This document shows, piece after piece, positions 1-25,836 of a stretch of DNA of 64,000 nucleotides. The stretch is taken from the IMG/VR virus record IMGVR_UViG_2721755758_000001, positions 1 through 64,000 of that record; one strand, 5' to 3'. Both the position numbers and the translations under genes were made by a program. The DNA comes from a virus (lineage: Duplodnaviria; Caudoviricetes). The stretch's first letter is position 1, and every line of letters starts with the position of its first letter. The notes beneath the pieces are model-generated. The model made no database searches. It was not told the origin of the DNA and saw only the letters and a program-made list of their open reading frames with translations.

Positions 1-1548
1 ATGGGTTCAACAAAATTCACGTTAACGCGAGAAGTAAGAAATGAAATTTCACAATATATAGACAATGAGTTTATGAATGAAATATTAAAAGAAGCCGTAA
101 AATATATACAGACCACAGGAAAAGTTGAAATAGATGATTCATCATTTAACCAATATGATGAAAATTCAAAAATTATCCTTAAAGATATAGGGACTTTTAA
201 TGTATATGACTATATGTATTTTAAAGATTTTCTTGATGAAGTATCATGGGAAGGTTCTTATGTTGAGAATGAAGAGGAAGTTCCTGGTTCTAATGATTAT
301 AGAAAGATTATCAAGTATGAGCCAAAGGATGTAGGTCATGTTATTTATGAAAAAGTAAAAAATAATATGGAACAGAAAAAAAGTCTTATTTATAAAGAAT
401 ATAAGAAAAAATATAATGAAGAATTTTTATTTGAAAGTGTACGTTTTTATAAAAGAACAAGAGATGGCAAAGAATATTATGAAATAAAAGCTGATGAATT
501 AAATCAAGATAAAAAAAGAAGCATTGTAGAAAGCATTAAAACTGAGTTTGCCAATGCATTTAAAAGTAGATGGGGAACTTCAATAATTTCAAAAATATCA
601 TTTGCTAATGATGAACTTATGCTTGATACATATGAGAAGGGATGTATTCTTCTAGGAATAGAAAATGAATACTTTACACAGTCAGTACATGAGAACTATA
701 GCAAAAGTGAAGAAGAACTTATAAGAATAATGACAAAGTCATGTAGAAATGTTATTTCTCATATGGATGGAATTCCGAAGCTTAAGATTAAAGTCATAAA
801 TGCTTTAGATAAAAGGATAGATAATCTTGTTAACATGAATATATATAAAACAGATAATCATATGAATTCATTTTTAGAAGATGCAAGAAAGCTTGTTTTT
901 GGATACTACAAAACAATGACAATAGGTAGAGGACGATATGGCTTAAAATCAAAAGAAAATAAAATTCTTGAAATAATAAAAAGAATGGCTGTTGTTGAAA
1001 ATGTGCTTTATTTAGATTATATAAGTGAAAATGAAAAAGCACCATCAATTGATGAAATGGAAGATTTTAAGGAATGTATTCCATGGATATGTTTTAAAGG
1101 GCCTTCATGGACAGCAGAAAATATATATATTAAAAAGAAAGCAAAAGATGAGCTTCAAGATATAATTCTTGATAATCCAATAAATGAATATGAAGATTCA
1201 AGATTGATGGAAAGACATTTTATTCTTCATGTTGGTGAAACAAATACAGGAAAAACATATTCAAGTATTTTAAGGCTTATGGAAGCTGAAAGTGGAGTTT
1301 ACCTTGCACCACTACGACTTCTTGCTCTTGAAATTCAGGATAAGCTAAATAGTGAAAATGTTTCATGTTCACTTCTTACAGGAGAAGAGGAAGATATTAT
1401 TCCTTATGGAACACATGTTTCTTCAACTATTGAAAAACTTCAAACAGGAACTTTTTATGATGTATGTGTAATAGATGAAGCTCAAATGATAAATGATAAT
1501 CAACGGGGCTGTGGTAGAGCTGCGAGAATACGAAGATTTACTATATAA
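1..1548 (+). pseudogene. Host SUV3-like SF2 helicase, 5' part, interrupted by the prophage
   Basis: Walker A HVGETNTGKT, YLAPLRLLALE, TGEE and motif II IDEAQM present. After QRG, where the family has WAW, it reads CGRAARIRRFTI* and the later helicase motifs are missing. The true start may lie upstream of the window. Confidence 0.85.
1490..1545. other. Probable attL junction, crossover at or just before 1511
   Basis: Helicase homology ends at caacggggctg (1501-1511), about 50 bp from the 3' end of the serine integrase gene. Confidence 0.7.
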
Positions 1549-1562
1549 TTCCATGTTAGTGG

Positions 1563-3188
1563 CTATTTTTTTTTACTTTCATTATTTTCTATATCTATAC
1601 TGTAAGATACTATCGCTTTAAAATTTTCTGAATCCCAAACAACTTTATCTATAATTTTGCTAAGGCATTCTCTTTTAAATTGAATAGAATCAATAATTTC
1701 TATATTTTTTGAAAAACTGCTTAAGTTATTAACAAAATATCGTATGTTTTCAATTATTGATTTATTTTCCTTTTCTTCATTCAGATTATCTTCAAGTTTT
1801 ATTTTTAGTTTTCTTATTTCTGTATCAGCATTATCTATTTGATCCATTAATATTCCAGTTACTCTTTCATTTGTAGAAACTGCTAATTTTTCAATCAGTG
1901 AATTCATGAATATTTCTTTTTCTTTTATCTGATCCTCAATGTTAGATTTGATATAATCATCTGAATTATTGTTAATATTATCTTTTATATAACTATCTAG
2001 TGATTTTGATAAAACTTCTTTTGAATATATTTTTATAGAATCAAGCACAGCATTGTCTACATAATCAACACGTATATTCTTACAAGTACATTTTTCTTCA
2101 CCACGTTTTTTCTTATTGGTACAAATATAATAAGTCTGCTTATATTGTCCTCCATTTGCTCGTGGTAACATATTTGCACCACATACTTTGCATTTTAATA
2201 GACCAGCAAGCAGAGATACATTATTTCCAGTTCCAAGTCGTTTGATTTTCTTATCTTTATTTTTATCTAGTAATTTTTGTACTTCTAACCATAATTGTGG
2301 CTCTATATATCCTTTATTTTTAGAGATAGCACATATCCACTCGGATTTATCTTTTTTCTTTCCATTTACATTGCTCTTATTGTATATCAGATATCCATTT
2401 CCATTAGGAGAACCACATACTTGCATTCCCATATCGCATAAGTAAGTATGCACTTTGTTATTAGACTTCACATAGACTGGATTCCTTAGTATATCTACTA
2501 AAACTGAAGTTTTATAATAAGAGTTATTTCTATTTTTTATTCCATTATCAAATAATATTTTTTCTAATCCAGTAACAGAACCACATTCTAAATATGTTTT
2601 ATATATTGTACTAACCAATTCTAATTCTTTTAAATTAGGTACAAGTACACTAGCTTCTTTTTCTCTCATTTCTTCATTCATATATTTAATTCTTTTTACA
2701 TTAAATCCTAAAGATGGCTTACCTCCAAGGAACATTCCACGTTTAGCCATTTGCATCATACTATCTTTAACTCTTTCCGCTATGCTTTCTCTTTCGAGTT
2801 GAGCAAATATAGAAGCTATATATATCATGGCTCTTCCTATAGGACTGCTAGTATCAAATTGTTCGGAAATAGATATAAAATCACAATTGTTTTTTTGTAA
2901 TAAATCAAGGACAGTGGAGAAATCTGCCACAGACCTTGAAATTCTATCTAGCTTATAGCAGATTAGTTTATCTATTTCTCCATTTTCTATTTTTTTAATC
3001 ATTCTTTTAAATTCGGGCCTATTTGTATTTTTTGCAGAAAATCCATCATCTTCGAATATTTCTATTTTTATTTCTTCATTATTAAAAAAATTTCTTTTTA
3101 TATACATATCACATAGTTCAATTTGATTTTGTACAGAATCTCCGGCTTCTTTAAAAACTGATTTTCTGCTGTATATAGCAATGTTCAT
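1563..3188 (-). CDS. Large serine recombinase (integrase)
   Basis: AIYSRKS catalytic motif, DDGFSAKNTNRPEF, YKLDRISRS, recombinase domain, zinc ribbon CKVCG...YYIC, coiled coil. Confidence 0.97.
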   Translation of the reverse strand: MNIAIYSRKSVFKEAGDSVQNQIELCDMYIKRNFFNNEEIKIEIFEDDGFSAKNTNRPEFKRMIKKIENGEIDKLICYKLDRISRSVADFSTVLDLLQKNNCDFISISEQFDTSSPIGRAMIYIASIFAQLERESIAERVKDSMMQMAKRGMFLGGKPSLGFNVKRIKYMNEEMREKEASVLVPNLKELELVSTIYKTYLECGSVTGLEKILFDNGIKNRNNSYYKTSVLVDILRNPVYVKSNNKVHTYLCDMGMQVCGSPNGNGYLIYNKSNVNGKKKDKSEWICAISKNKGYIEPQLWLEVQKLLDKNKDKKIKRLGTGNNVSLLAGLLKCKVCGANMLPRANGGQYKQTYYICTNKKKRGEEKCTCKNIRVDYVDNAVLDSIKIYSKEVLSKSLDSYIKDNINNNSDDYIKSNIEDQIKEKEIFMNSLIEKLAVSTNERVTGILMDQIDNADTEIRKLKIKLEDNLNEEKENKSIIENIRYFVNNLSSFSKNIEIIDSIQFKRECLSKIIDKVVWDSENFKAIVSYSIDIENNESKKK

Positions 3189-3197
3189 ATCTTCCTC

Positions 3198-3428
3198 CTA
3201 ATAATTACATTTTTCTAAATTTCTTTCTTTACATTCTTTTGTGCATTCTATAAGACATTTTGGACATACATCTAGTGCGCAAGCTATATTCATAATCATA
3301 AATGAATTTGGATACTTTGTCCCATGTTCTAACTCGCTTAAATATGAAGCACTTATGCCTATTTTTTCAGCCAAATCATGTTGAGTAATCTTTTTTTCTG
3401 TCCTTATTTCTTTAATTCGTAATTTCAA
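3198..3428 (-). CDS. XRE-family HTH protein with Cys-rich tail, upstream of and co-oriented with the integrase
   Basis: IKEIR..KKITQHDLAEKIGISASYLSELEHG; C-terminal VCPKCLIEC. Confidence 0.85.
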   Translation of the reverse strand: MKLRIKEIRTEKKITQHDLAEKIGISASYLSELEHGTKYPNSFMIMNIACALDVCPKCLIECTKECKERNLEKCNY

Positions 3429-3502
3429 TCATTTTTCCTCCTGTGTTTTATTTTCATTTTTCAATATAACATTACAATATACATAAAATATATACATTTT
3501 CT

Positions 3503-3518
3503 ATGGTAATTTTACCAT
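3503..3518. promoter_or_regulatory. Palindrome ATGGTAA-TT-TTACCAT, candidate operator
   Basis: Perfect 7-bp arms in the intergenic control region. Confidence 0.45.
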
Positions 3519-3552
3519 GAATTTCTCATATTTTTTAGTAAAATGTCGTAAA

Positions 3553-3569
3553 CTTCGCAAATAGCGAAG
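3553..3569. promoter_or_regulatory. Palindrome CTTCGC-N5-GCGAAG, candidate XRE operator
   Basis: GC-rich perfect arms in an AT-rich spacer; Spo0A-box-like TGTCGTA at 3544-3550 alongside. Confidence 0.55.
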
Positions 3570-3570
3570 G

Positions 3571-3608
3571 GAACAAATGTTTTATATTAGTAAGAAAAAT
3601 GTTATAAT
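3571..3608 (+). promoter_or_regulatory. LexA/DinR-type box overlapping the -35 region of an extended -10 promoter
   Basis: GAACAAATGTTT (GAAC-N4-GTTY) at 3571-3582; TGnTATAAT at 3600-3608. Confidence 0.7.
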
Positions 3609-3638
3609 TAACATATATTGTAAACGAAGGGGCGATTA

Positions 3639-3758
3639 ATGATGAAAACCAAAGTAAAACAAGCACTCGATTTAAGAAAATTAGTAGAATTAATAGGAAA
3701 ATACGATATAAAAAAAGAGGATATTAGTAAAATAATAGCGCTATATCTAGATATATAA
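3639..3758 (+). CDS. 39-aa peptide resembling the repressor C-terminus; putative antirepressor (not in ORF track)
   Basis: RBS AAGGGG; MMKTKVKQALDLRKLVELIGKYDIKKEDISKIIALYLDI; own promoter and terminator. Confidence 0.75.
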   Translation: MMKTKVKQALDLRKLVELIGKYDIKKEDISKIIALYLDI

Positions 3759-3761
3759 AAA

Positions 3762-3794
3762 AAGAAGAGTGAGAATACTTTTCTCGCTCTTCTT
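3762..3794. terminator. Terminator hairpin between the convergent peptide and repressor genes
   Basis: aagaagagtgagaa-tactt-ttctcgctcttctt, A-tract on the left. Confidence 0.8.
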
Positions 3795-4116
3795 ACTCCA
3801 TTATTTTATACATCTGTATAACTTTTTCTAATTTTTCTATACTAATATCTTCTTTCTTAATTCCATTTTTCTCAAATGCATCTATTAATTCTGTTACAAC
3901 TAAATTAGAATCTTCTCCATTAATAAGATAGTCTGTTGAACAATTTAAAGCGGATGCTATTTTTGTTATTCCATCTAAAGACGGCTTACATCTTCCACTT
4001 TCTATTTGACTCATAGTAGTTTTTTTAAGTCCTATCAACTCTGCTAATTTTTGCTGCTCTATACCAAGAGATAACCTTTTCTTTTTAATTCTTTCCCCTA
4101 TGTTCATTTCATTCAC
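3793..4116 (-). CDS. Prophage repressor (XRE HTH, no S24 peptidase domain)
   Basis: IGERIKKKR...QQKLAELIGLKKTTMSQIESG; 107 aa; divergent from a cro-like gene. Confidence 0.88.
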   Translation of the reverse strand: MNEMNIGERIKKKRLSLGIEQQKLAELIGLKKTTMSQIESGRCKPSLDGITKIASALNCSTDYLINGEDSNLVVTELIDAFEKNGIKKEDISIEKLEKVIQMYKIME

Positions 4117-4272: not shown

Positions 4273-4301
4273 TTGACAGTTTTGTGTTACAAAACTATAA
4301 T
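4273..4301 (+). promoter_or_regulatory. Early lytic promoter whose 17-bp spacer is the operator
   Basis: TTGACA-GTTTTGTGTTACAAAAC-TATAAT. Confidence 0.92.
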
Positions 4302-4347: not shown

Positions 4348-4548
4348 GTGGGAAGTAGATTAAGAGCGTTAAGAACTTTAAAAAATGTTCCAGCTAAAGA
4401 AATAGCTGAAACTTTAAACATAACAATAGATAGTTACTATCTAAAGGAACGAGGAAAAAATAGATTTGCATTAGATGAAGCTAAGAAAATAGCTGATATA
4501 TTAGAAATGAGTATAGAAGAAGTGTTTTATAGCACTTCTAATATTTAA
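4348..4548 (+). CDS. Cro-like XRE regulator
   Basis: 66-aa HTH, first gene after the early promoter; RBS GGAGG. Confidence 0.88.
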   Translation: MGSRLRALRTLKNVPAKEIAETLNITIDSYYLKERGKNRFALDEAKKIADILEMSIEEVFYSTSNI

Positions 4549-4555
4549 CATTTTG

Positions 4556-4572
4556 GTTTTGTAATACAAAAC
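4556..4572. promoter_or_regulatory. Operator copy
   Basis: GTTTTGTAATACAAAAC directly before an AGGAGG RBS. Confidence 0.85.
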
Positions 4573-12066: not shown

Positions 12067-12272
12067 TAATTATGGATATAAAAGATAGAATTATGAGAAT
12101 TAAAAAAATATATAATAAAGCATCTAAAGAAACAAAGATAGAAATTGGTAATATTATCGGAGGTTACTATGATAATAGGGTACCTAAAACAAATGAAACA
12201 CCAGATAAATGAATTAAAGCATAAGAAGAATGCAAGCTAATAAATAATTAGCCTATTTAAACACGCACATCG

Positions 12273-12289
12273 GTTTTGTGATACAAAAC
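12273..12289. promoter_or_regulatory. Operator copy
   Basis: GTTTTGTGATACAAAAC. Confidence 0.85.
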
Positions 12290-12360
12290 TAGAAACACTA
12301 ATGATAAATCTATCAAGAGAAAAAATAAAAGCCTTAGAATGGCAAATAAAGGGGTTTATC

Positions 12361-12501
12361 ATGAGTAAAGAAATTGCAAAAGTTATAAAAGAAAATAATG
12401 TTAATGAAAAAGATATTAAGAAAATAGTTGATATTTATATGAGCATAAAAGAAAGTGTAGTTACATTAGAGAATTTTATGGAAGCCTACAAAAAATTATG
12501 A
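12361..12501 (+). CDS. 46-aa protein resembling the 3639 peptide
   Basis: RBS GGGG before ATG 12361; IAKVIKENNVNEKDIKKIVDIY. Confidence 0.6.
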   Translation: MSKEIAKVIKENNVNEKDIKKIVDIYMSIKESVVTLENFMEAYKKL

Positions 12502-12788
12502 ATGAAGAAGATATAAAGCTATATGAAGATATAGTAATCAGACATAGAAATCTTAGAAGTAATGATCCGGACTACGCTTTCAAATTGTCAATAGACTCAC
12601 TGCAGATATATAACTATTTTTCTGAGATAAAAATGAACATAAAGAAAAGTCTTAAAAGAGGAGAACAGCCTTATCTAAAAGATAGGTTAGAAGAATGTTG
12701 CAAAATACTTTTTGAAATATATAACTTCTCTAAAATTATTTGGAGACAGGCAAAAGAAGATTATAGAAACAATAAGGAAGATCTATGA
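12498..12788 (+). CDS. Hypothetical protein
   Basis: Overlapping start/stop codons on both sides. Confidence 0.65.
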   Translation: MNEEDIKLYEDIVIRHRNLRSNDPDYAFKLSIDSLQIYNYFSEIKMNIKKSLKRGEQPYLKDRLEECCKILFEIYNFSKIIWRQAKEDYRNNKEDL

Positions 12789-13354
12789 AAGTCTTAATCA
12801 TAAAGGGAGAAAAGATAGAATTAACAGAAGATGAATGCATAAAACAATTTGAAAAATTAGCATGTAAGTATGCAAATAAGTTTATCGATTATGATTTTGA
12901 TGAAATGAAACAACTATCATATATAGCTATATGGAAAGCTTATAAGAAATATGATGCTGATAAAGGTAATGAATTTATTACACTAGCAACAAAATGTATC
13001 TATAATGATTTATTAAGCTATACCAGTAAAAGAAGCATAGCAGCTATGTATAGTTTAGATAAGAATGTACTAGGACAAAAAGGTTTTGATAGAAGTTATG
13101 ACTTTTATGAAATTGTAGATAATGAAATGTATTATATACAACAAGTGATTGACAAAGTTTTTATAGAAGAAATAGAAAAATTTGTGAAGCAGAGCAGAAG
13201 TGAAAATAGATATAGAGTATTTGAACTTTTAAAACAAGAAAAAACAAATGATGAAATAGCAGCAAAACTTGGATTCACGCATCAAAATGCTACAAGAATA
13301 AGAAAAGAATTAATTAAATCAGTCAGAAAGGAATTTGATGGAATAAATGGGTAA
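12785..13354 (+). CDS. Sigma-70-family factor 1 (regions 2 and 4)
   Basis: FDEMKQLSYIAIWKAYKKYD..KGNEFITLA; C-terminal HTH. Confidence 0.8.
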   Translation: MKVLIIKGEKIELTEDECIKQFEKLACKYANKFIDYDFDEMKQLSYIAIWKAYKKYDADKGNEFITLATKCIYNDLLSYTSKRSIAAMYSLDKNVLGQKGFDRSYDFYEIVDNEMYYIQQVIDKVFIEEIEKFVKQSRSENRYRVFELLKQEKTNDEIAAKLGFTHQNATRIRKELIKSVRKEFDGING

Positions 13355-13916
13355 GGAAATTTTAATAGGTGGAAAGATAGAGCTCCTTACAGAAGATGAA
13401 GTTTGTATTAAATTTAAACCTATGATAATTAAGGAGGTTAAATCTTGGAGCAAATATTATGACTATGATGATATGTTTCAGATTTCGTATATAGGATTAT
13501 TAAAAGCTTATAGGAAATATGATATTAAATTTGGATATAGTTTTTCTACAGTAGCAATTTCTTATATAAGGTATGAAATGTTAAGAGAAACAAGAACTGA
13601 AAGAAGAAGAAAGAAAAAAGGAAAAGTTATATTCTTAAGTTTAAATAAAGTAATAGGGTTTAGCAATAATATTCCAGTTGAAATTGTAGATATTTCAAAA
13701 GATAAAGAAAACATCATAGATAAAGTAGAAAATAAAATATTTTTAACAAAAATAATTAATTCATTGCCAAAAGAAGAAAAGAGAATTATTAAATTAATTT
13801 ATATGGAAGATAAAACTCAAGTTCAAGTAGCAAAAGAATTGGATATTACTCAAGTTCAAGTTTCTAGAAAACTAAAAAGAATATTTAAAAATATAAGAGA
13901 GCAATTAGGAGCATGA
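13347..13916 (+). CDS. Sigma-70-family factor 2, SigF/SigG-like
   Basis: DDMFQISYIGLLKAYRKYD...FSTVA; DKTQVQVAKELDITQVQVSR. Confidence 0.88.
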   Translation: MGKEILIGGKIELLTEDEVCIKFKPMIIKEVKSWSKYYDYDDMFQISYIGLLKAYRKYDIKFGYSFSTVAISYIRYEMLRETRTERRRKKKGKVIFLSLNKVIGFSNNIPVEIVDISKDKENIIDKVENKIFLTKIINSLPKEEKRIIKLIYMEDKTQVQVAKELDITQVQVSRKLKRIFKNIREQLGA

Positions 13917-14482
13917 AGAGGTTACTTATAGATGGGAAAATAGTTGAAGCAACAGAAGAAGAAATAGTTAGTAATAAAATTATTAAAAAAATAGCTTATA
14001 AATATATTCATCAGTGGGATAGAAAGTATGAATTTGATGATTTAGTTCAAATAGCAAATATAGGAATTATAAAAGCTTTTAGAACAGTAGAAAATGAAAA
14101 CCGAGAATTTACATGCTATGTAGATTTAATAATTAAAAGAGAAATAATACGATACAGCAGAGATTTATGTAGGAAAAAGAGAAGTACAGAAAATTTAATG
14201 AGTTTAAATTATTCTCCTTGTCAAGAAGGAACTATAGAAGAAATCACATCAGATTCAAAAAATATGGAAGAAGAAATAATAAATAAACTTTTAATAGAAA
14301 AAGTAATTAACACCATCGAAAAAAGTCTTAAAGAAAAAGAGAAAATAGTGTATAGAGAATATTTTTTAAAGGGAAGAGACATCTATGATATATCAACAGA
14401 GTTAGGATGTAGCCATCAGTATGGATATAGGCTTAAAAATCAAATCAATAATAAAATTAAAAAAATAGTAGGAGAGTGTTAA
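13913..14482 (+). CDS. Sigma-70-family factor 3
   Basis: FDDLVQIANIGIIKAF; C-terminal HTH. Confidence 0.82.
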   Translation: MKRLLIDGKIVEATEEEIVSNKIIKKIAYKYIHQWDRKYEFDDLVQIANIGIIKAFRTVENENREFTCYVDLIIKREIIRYSRDLCRKKRSTENLMSLNYSPCQEGTIEEITSDSKNMEEEIINKLLIEKVINTIEKSLKEKEKIVYREYFLKGRDIYDISTELGCSHQYGYRLKNQINNKIKKIVGEC

Positions 14483-25569: not shown

Positions 25570-25836
25570 ATGATTAGAATTTTTAAAAATATAGATTTAA
25601 GCAAAATTACATTTATAAATCAAATTAAAAAAACACAAGAAGAGGATAAAGAATTTATAGAAGCTATAATGCAATATAAGTTAGGAATTGGAAGTAGAGA
25701 ACATGTAAAAGAAGAGATATGCGATAAATTTCAAGCAGCATTAGGACTAGCTAAAAAGCAGGGTATACCAGCCGAAGAGATTGAAGAATACTTTAATACT
25801 ACTCATGCAGAAAAAATAAAAAATAGACCAAGATAG
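25570..25836 (+). CDS. MazG-like nucleotide pyrophosphohydrolase
   Basis: EEDKEF...EEICD pattern. Confidence 0.55.
   Translation: MIRIFKNIDLSKITFINQIKKTQEEDKEFIEAIMQYKLGIGSREHVKEEICDKFQAALGLAKKQGIPAEEIEEYFNTTHAEKIKNRPR

Follow-up and report, generated by a model that had tools for sequence, protein, structure and literature searches.

The DNA analysed here (hereafter the window) comprises the first 64 kb of IMGVR_UViG_2721755758_000001, a 72.7-kb provirus record of the Caudoviricetes. Close to its left end, a small open reading frame (ORF) preceded by a LexA-type box converges on the gene of a short repressor of the helix-turn-helix (HTH) type. Following an interrupted host gene, the order is a serine recombinase, an HTH protein of 76 amino acids (aa) that we call HTH76, and, after 210 bp of intergenic DNA, the small ORF, which a hairpin separates from the convergent repressor gene; a divergent cro-like gene follows. 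An original prediction, made from the letters of the sequence, held that the small ORF encodes a peptide that copies the C terminus of the repressor and releases the prophage upon DNA damage. We describe below the elements of this locus, weigh the proposal against its rivals and compare the locus with known induction switches.

The small gene and the convergent repressor gene

The small ORF occupies positions 3642..3758 of the plus strand and encodes a 38-aa peptide, a candidate antirepressor. Its promoter (TTTATA-16-TATAAT, 3581..3608) matches the consensus hexamers at 10 of 12 positions and carries a TG extension of the -10 element (TGTTATAAT, 3600-3608), and a ribosome binding site (RBS), GAAGGGG (3626..3632), lies 9 nt before the ATG at 3642. 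Only 34 nt separate the stop codon of the peptide gene from that of the repressor gene, the two genes being arranged tail to tail around a two-way intrinsic terminator with a 14-bp stem (3762..3794). The folding energy of this hairpin is -20.6 kcal/mol on the plus strand (z -8.4) and -19.1 kcal/mol on the minus strand (z -5.4), and a U-run follows it on the repressor (minus) side only. All these elements, ORF, RBS, TGnTATAAT promoter and shared terminator, had been predicted and were recovered here. The start codon has to be moved, however: the original prediction placed it at 3639, which gives 39 aa, but that first ATG reads ATT in locus L004, a metagenome contig, and in sequencing run X2 (the runs used here are environmental metagenomes and metatranscriptomes), so that the conserved start is the second ATG.

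The ORF had also been called unannotated. It is indeed nameless, but several public collections already contain the exact peptide as a called protein, and some of the contigs concerned are in NCBI assemblies. The cluster of the peptide at 90% identity holds 8 variants on 37 contigs in total, and HMMER, run exhaustively against 1.84 billion representatives, retrieved one further homolog, P0005, which also has 38 aa and is 66% identical (E 9.9e-6). Twenty-three columns of the alignment with P0005 are invariant and are spread over both helices of the AlphaFold 2 model, a helix-loop-helix (helices 2-21 and 26-36) with a predicted local distance difference test (pLDDT) score of 87.8. The peptide matched no Pfam family above the cut-off and zero PHROG families, its model had no match in the PDB by Foldseek, and a language-model search of a protein atlas gave scores of at most 0.84, all to unnamed clusters; by these four routes, it belongs to none of the known antirepressor families (ANT, Tum, Gfo, Sar and others).

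With high probability, the sequence evidence marks the small ORF as a real gene, and the peptide is presumably translated. That ORF and box are instead accidents of AT-rich DNA appears very improbable to us. The 28% G+C of the window does make promoter-like hexamers common (14 versus 11 expected), and the close relatives are too similar to reveal selection. Still, an open frame of 38 codons has a chance of about 4%, as estimated from base composition, yet the same length is kept at 66% identity, and RBS, extended -10 element, terminator and the sole intergenic LexA box of the window coincide at this one gene.

The convergent gene encodes an XRE-type prophage repressor (3793..4116, minus strand), the HTH of which (HTH_3, E 4.9e-13, residues 10-64) resembles those of the 434 and P22 C2 repressors; all its Pfam matches are to HTH families. 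The predicted ORF of 107 aa is present, but its GTG start at 4116 lies within the RBS GGAGTG, so that translation probably begins at the ATG at 4107 and yields 104 aa; the repressor relative P0001 has 104 aa. Neither Peptidase_S24 nor Peptidase_M78/ImmA found a match across the whole 72.7-kb record, which bears out the earlier claim of a repressor without an S24 domain or an ImmA nearby and widens it to the entire record; the repressor should therefore be unable to sense RecA itself. Its C-terminal tail (residues 71-107; 3796..3906, minus strand) is predicted by AlphaFold 2 to form two helices (70-83 and 93-106), with pLDDT values of 56-71 that are low, as expected for a pairing domain. We presume that this tail is the oligomerization module of the repressor and the target of the peptide.

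A LexA-type box at the peptide promoter

A box of the LexA (Cheo) type, GAACAAATGTTT, which follows the pattern GAAC-N4-GTTY, lies at 3571..3582 on the plus strand, just upstream of the -35 hexamer of the peptide promoter, which it overlaps by 2 nt. The pattern occurs 7 times in the window (6 sites) versus 1.86 expected, a number reached by none of 100 shuffles, and the site at 3571 is the only one of the six that is intergenic, the other five being inside long ORFs. Two genomes, a Bacillota metagenome-assembled genome and an uncultured Clostridium, carry copies of the interrupted host gene that are 66-71% identical and served for comparison. In both, lexA has GAACATA[GA]GTTT 18 nt before TGATATAAT, recA has the box GAACATTAGTTC and uvrB has a box with one mismatch; at the peptide gene, 17 nt separate GAACAAATGTTT from the extended -10 element. 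The predicted box over the -35 region was thus found again, in the clostridial form: for lexA, recA and ruvC of Clostridium difficile, the published LexA box is GAACnnnnGTTT (PMC4234289). Based on the position of the sole intergenic site and on its lexA-like spacing (17 versus 18 nt), we consider it likely that LexA controls the peptide promoter, as had been predicted, by binding at 3571-3582. We rejected the possibility that the box is a phage operator, since the order and spacing of its half-sites differ. The pattern scan of the window found no copy of GTTTTGT-N3-ACAAAAC, the candidate repressor operator described below, at the peptide promoter.

Two other sequence features stand in the same intergenic region. 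Immediately 5' of the LexA box and abutting it, a G+C-rich 6-bp inverted repeat, CTTCGC-N5-GCGAAG (3553..3569), is set in AT-rich DNA; its folding energy is -8.6 to -10.6 kcal/mol (z -2.8 on the plus and -4.3 on the minus strand), and it is a candidate operator or barrier to read-through. On the other side of the region, in a position that mirrors that of the LexA box, a perfect 16-bp palindrome, ATGGTAATTTTACCAT (3503..3518), lies towards the leftward promoter of HTH76 and integrase. It has a single exact copy within the window and is a candidate operator.

Could the transcript rather than the peptide be the active product? LexA-controlled convergent transcription might pass a weak plus-side terminator and impair the repressor by collision or as antisense RNA, the small ORF being secondary. 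The tail-to-tail arrangement with 34 nt between the genes would suit such an effect, termination of the plus-strand transcript may leak given that the U-run is on the repressor side only, and an antisense role was once proposed for the transcripts of aimX, a small phage gene discussed below. Nevertheless, the hairpin is strong on the plus strand too, the ORF has its own RBS, and its length and 23 invariant columns, which an RNA-only element would not need, are kept at 66% identity. In phage phi106, moreover, recoding and start-to-stop mutants showed that the protein acts and not an antisense RNA (bioRxiv 10.1101/2025.11.23.689978). We therefore regard an effect at the RNA level as quite improbable.

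Likeness of the peptide to the repressor tail

The predicted alignment between peptide and repressor tail was reproduced by BLASTP, with 12 identities in 28 positions, a single 5-residue gap and an E value of 7e-4. Profile alignment with hhalign gave a probability of 79.6% (E 1.5e-5), and two shuffle tests of 20,000 shuffles each gave p values of 0.0008 and 0.0009. The alignment of the peptide spans the whole tail (residues 71-107), with the hydrophobic positions aligned. At the DNA level, the coding stretches of peptide and tail form a 57-nt inverted repeat with 40 matches (70%), the longest of the locus; of 127,888 window positions, self excluded, none but the tail shares at least 36 of 57 letters with the peptide segment, and 1 of 1000 codon shuffles reached 40/57.

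The tail itself seems to travel between proteins. A word-index search of 5.8 billion proteins found only four relatives of the repressor. In two of them, P0003 and P0004, a stretch of 31 tail residues (ELIDAF...KIM) is joined to an unrelated HTH and a longer linker (129 aa). Run X2 contains, in addition, a contig that matches the window at 3797-3891 only, with 9 differences in 95 nt, and the unlike flank of which appears to encode the NKE-stop extension of P0003 and P0004. In view of the chimeras and this contig, we regard the tail as a portable module under protein-level constraint. Beyond these, relatives are few. Among 50,697 phage records, the repressor had no match by blastn, and its tblastn matches were all below 60% identity, the best ones covering mainly the HTH. 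In viral contigs, the single protein as query retrieved no relative; with the repressor alignment as query, the relatives among the pattern matches listed, at least 581, were L002 and L003, which are related in the HTH only. The 210 pattern matches in genome contigs included no relative of the repressor, and metagenome contigs yielded the near-identical 1.5-kb contig L004. A word search for short proteins resembling the tail found none sharing words with it. Repressors of similar length in phiCD211, GBSV1 and A006 stand in another gene order, with no convergent mini-gene annotated.

Based on these data, we propose the following switch. In a lysogen, host LexA bound to GAACAAATGTTT would keep the promoter of the 38-aa gene shut, and the repressor would hold the early promoters off through the GTTTTGT-N3-ACAAAAC palindromes, to which it would bind as an oligomer assembled via its C-terminal two-helix tail. 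Upon DNA damage, LexA would be cleaved and the peptide made; as a helix-loop-helix paralog of the tail, the peptide would pair with it where a second repressor subunit would otherwise do so, and these heterodimers would be unable to bind the operators, so that the prophage would be induced. We infer the pairing with the tail and the ensuing loss of DNA binding from the likeness described above. The mimicry step is plausible in view of sequence, models and analogy with known systems, and we see the chances as evenly divided that the peptide is an SOS-triggered decoy antirepressor which acts on the repressor tail and provides the DNA damage input of the immunity switch.

Several observations weigh against this proposal. 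At the protein level, the tail ranks second among 773 other ORF segments of the window: an unrelated ORF at 12244-12498 obtains a higher Smith-Waterman score against the peptide (52 versus 48). With the peptide as query, a profile search across the record recovered nothing but the peptide at E values up to 10. Nine unrelated proteins on AT-rich viral contigs contain the motif NGIKKEDI, and the alignment of P0005 with the P0002 tail falls in a different register. The SinI family (PF08671) matches neither the peptide nor the repressor at E values up to 1. The evidence on the LexA regulon comes from relatives with a flank gene that is 66-71% identical, not from the host itself; L004 and runs X2 and X7 are too alike in 3190-3800 to inform on selection for ORF or box; and an ANT-domain protein encoded elsewhere in the record could be the inducer or a second inducer.

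Further searches bear on the same question. Patterns back-translated from peptide and tail matched 0, 9 and 3 loci in viral contigs, and all 12 encode unrelated proteins. The only SinI match of the record (25750-25797, E 0.006) lies away from the locus. The 66-aa early-operon product of the higher-scoring ORF (12301-12501, plus strand) has a middle part, …NVNEKDIKKIVDIYMSI…, that matches the second half of the peptide without a gap; an operator palindrome lies just before its gene, which has no DNA-level match to the peptide gene. This match may be due to chance, or the product may be a third member of a hairpin motif. The similarity of peptide and tail exceeds chance only if adjacency and the DNA-level match are counted, and we judge the evidence that the two are related as mixed but on balance positive.

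An SOS-induced small protein with another target, such as the control of HTH76 and integrase, a host protein or a phage protein (for instance the 12301-12501 product), would accommodate the reality of the gene and its LexA box equally well. The tail likeness would then be a by-product of a helical composition rich in K, E, I and D. The unrelated ORF that outscores the tail and the frequency of NGIKKEDI-like motifs in AT-rich phage proteins (all 9 scan matches being unrelated) would fit such a view, as would a promoter region common to the divergent HTH76-integrase operon. We nevertheless hold another target to be unlikely, since no other stretch of the window matches the peptide gene as well at the DNA level as the tail does, the similarity covers the entire tail domain with hydrophobic positions in register, and the layout equals the proven one of AimX-AimC-AimL.

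Natural variation and the surrounding prophage

Relative to the window, the contigs of runs X2 and X7 show 34 and 46 letter differences, respectively. Among the 40 of 56 differences that were listed, at most 2 fall in 3190-3800, 13 are in the repressor gene (11 synonymous) and 14 in cro (10 synonymous). Divergence thus changes stepwise inside the repressor gene: from the integrase side through the tail, the sequences are almost identical; in the HTH part, the operators and cro, divergence rises to about 4% and is mostly synonymous. This distribution suggests that recombination has left a joint in the repressor gene, between tail and HTH. Tail, peptide gene, box and left arm form a near-identical travelling block, which is therefore uninformative about selection. 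Contigs from RNA libraries of two different studies cover the HTH76 and repressor genes, one of them also cro. Both repressor contigs end at 3796, beside the hairpin, a weak hint of a transcript 3' end or else an assembly break at the inverted repeat. In the RNA-library runs X19 and X20, no contig covers 3455-3772, where the peptide gene and its promoter lie, and these small environmental metatranscriptome assemblies are uninformative on expression or silence of the gene.

The cro-like gene (4348..4548, plus strand) is divergent from the repressor gene and encodes a 66-aa HTH protein (HTH_3, E 9.7e-6). Upstream of it, the promoter scan found a rightward early promoter, TTGACA-17-TATAAT (4273..4301, plus strand), with 12 of 12 hexamer matches and, between its hexamers, the palindrome GTTTTGTGTTACAAAAC at 4279-4295. 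A second copy (4556..4572, plus strand) directly precedes the RBS of the next gene. In all, GTTTTGT-N3-ACAAAAC occurs in 11 copies over 26 kb, versus 0.32 expected; 10 copies are intergenic and each is followed by CTA. These 17-nt palindromes start at 4279, 4556, 9368, 9398, 12273, 20511, 22730, 23055, 23085, 26146 and 30032. Three are flanked by -35 and -10 hexamers, and each of the rest stands directly against the RBS of the gene that follows. Two pairs have a spacing of 30 bp, which would suit cooperative binding by oligomers. The set looks like a genome-wide operator, a stoperator-like set or an RNA hairpin signal, and we take this repressor as its presumptive reader.

To the left of the intergenic region, HTH76 (3198..3428, minus strand; HTH_3, E 1.3e-13) is encoded directly upstream of the integrase gene and ends in a Cys-rich tail with the pattern C-x4-C-x2-C-x3-C-x3-C, which is lost in locus L004 through a premature stop. 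The prophage integrase is a large serine recombinase of 541 aa (1563..3188, minus strand) with Resolvase (E 2.2e-37), Recombinase and Zn_ribbon_recom domains in Pfam. At the left end, a helicase-like host gene with Suv3-type motifs (1-1548, plus strand) is interrupted after about residue 507 of 916. Its second half is still not reached at the end of the 72.7-kb record, and the inserted DNA must therefore be longer than the record. The sequence suggests a Clostridium-like host. After the replication genes come three tandem 189-aa paralogs (12785-14482, plus strand) that resemble, by eye, regulators of the small sigma-factor or region-4 type.

The original prediction had assumed that no other induction route exists, a premise weakened by a 231-aa ORF at 68808-69503 of the record (minus strand; positions 6809-7504 of L005), 65 kb from the peptide gene, which has an ANT domain (E 1.7e-26). 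The peptide is thus not the only conceivable antirepressor of the record, and the ANT ORF may provide another induction route or be part of another element. Its position is past the lysis genes and a TnpB-like element; its neighbors are a ParM-like gene and a small divergent HTH gene of its own (L005 7951-8157). The TnpB-like element, between the lysis genes and the ANT region, is a 374-aa ORF at 65904-67028 of the record (L005 3905-5029, plus strand) that looks by eye like TnpB of the IS200-605 type. Induction could proceed through the ANT gene, or through a factor encoded outside the record, with the peptide as an accessory or a relic. The strength of the ANT match argues for this view, and the ORF lies inside the same inserted DNA, given that the record ends before the second half of the host gene appears. 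However, GAAC-N4-GTTY has no match in 64-72.7 kb and hence no SOS input is visible there, the ANT gene with its own HTH switch and ParM-like neighbor may belong to another element, and the peptide is conserved. We find this alternative improbable.

Comparison with known systems

The closest parallel to the proposed switch is found in the extended arbitrium phages (phi106, phiW23, Wbeta, BMBtp14 and Waukesha92) described in a preprint of November 2025. There, AimX, a protein of 29-80 aa encoded convergently on or overlapping aimC, binds the short HTH repressor AimC at its C-terminal oligomerization domain, so that heterodimers form and dimerization and operator binding are lost, as established by two-hybrid assays, size-exclusion chromatography coupled to multi-angle light scattering, electrophoretic mobility shift assays and AlphaFold 3 (bioRxiv 10.1101/2025.11.23.689978). 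A LexA site precedes aimX in the phi106 family, close homologs of aimC and aimL without arbitrium are few, and the authors themselves liken AimX-AimC to SinI-SinR (bioRxiv 10.1101/2025.11.23.689978). Like that system, our locus combines a short HTH repressor without a cleavage domain (80-140 aa there, 104 or 107 aa here) and with a C-terminal helical oligomerization domain, a divergent cro-like HTH gene (4348-4548), a tiny ORF convergent on the repressor gene (29-80 aa there, 38 aa here) and a LexA site before that ORF, as in the phi106 family. [quoted passage not shown]

The differences are equally clear. No aimR or aimP adjoins our locus, where HTH76 and a serine integrase lie on the other strand instead: 3429-3638 contains no plus-strand ORF of 25 aa or more, an absence that concerns the adjoining genes, the remaining record not having been searched with an AimR model. 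Without aimR and aimP upstream, LexA is apparently the sole input. The host is Clostridium-like here and Bacillus there, and the peptide and repressor genes do not overlap but are separated by a strong terminator. Furthermore, the peptide has detectable protein and DNA similarity to the tail of its own repressor, a likeness that the accessible part of the preprint does not report for AimX. The resemblance of the two systems is one of layout and proposed mechanism. Together, these features make it probable that the locus is a LexA-only, self-derived variant of the AimX-AimC type of mechanism. Our literature search found no arbitrium-free or clostridial form of such a switch, although the supplements of the AimX preprint may list some.

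If the proposal is correct, the strategy of small decoy antirepressors exists outside arbitrium systems and Bacillus, with LexA as its sole input, and one origin of decoys is the duplication of the repressor's own pairing domain. Many Firmicute prophages have short, non-cleavable XRE repressors and no ImmA, and this nameless gene of 38 residues could be their missing damage-sensing link. The module would also provide a simple handle to trigger or block induction in Clostridium-type hosts. We are more doubtful than confident about a broader version, in which the peptide arose by inverted duplication of the repressor tail and forms with it a portable SOS-induction cassette, transferable to DNA-binding domains of unrelated type as P0003 and P0004 illustrate. 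One LexA-gated decoy would then wake several heteroimmune prophages, free of arbitrium and in Clostridia, by releasing a repressor of 11 sites over 26 kb. The chimeras predict heteroimmune phages with one common antirepressor target, and a modular tail predicts cross-induction among such phages in the communities of anaerobic digesters, sludge and fermentations.

In the SinI-SinR and SlrA-SlrR pairs of Bacillus subtilis, the XRE repressor is about 110 aa long and ends in two helices, and its antagonist is a small helical protein resembling the helices through which the repressor oligomerizes. The predicted likeness to SinI-SinR holds for this architecture of HTH plus two C-terminal helices: in Foldseek, the repressor model aligned with SinR of the SinR-SinI complex (1b0n_A) over 106 columns (TM score 0.61, E 7.1e-5, rank 4). 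It does not extend to family membership, the SinI Pfam domain being absent from both peptide and tail. SinI-type antagonists are controlled by Spo0A and serve a chromosomal biofilm circuit, whereas the antagonist proposed here would be LexA-gated and part of a phage immunity switch.

Tum of coliphage 186 is a LexA-repressed antirepressor of a non-cleavable phage repressor. Likewise, GfoA and GfhA of the Gifsy prophages are LexA-repressed antirepressors of non-cleavable repressors, and they act on heteroimmune repressors (PMC3121763). Sar of SPbeta-like phages is described as a LexA-gated antirepressor and DNA mimic (bioRxiv 10.1101/2025.11.27.690993). With all of these, our locus would share an SOS input that relies on a LexA site at a small antirepressor's promoter and not on cleavage of the repressor. 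Nevertheless, no sequence relation links the peptide to them, no Pfam or PHROG family matching it, and it resembles a repressor tail, unlike Sar, which mimics DNA. Among repressor circuits, mycobacteriophage L5 has dispersed stoperators, and phage P1 has many C1 operators and the small inactivator Coi. The operator palindrome of our prophage is similarly dispersed, with 10 intergenic copies among the 11 that span 26 kb, but it differs in that its sites are palindromic and three of them lie between promoter hexamers. Finally, a tail shared with repressors that have an unrelated HTH (P0003 and P0004) would permit heteroimmune cross-talk like that of the Gifsy antirepressors.

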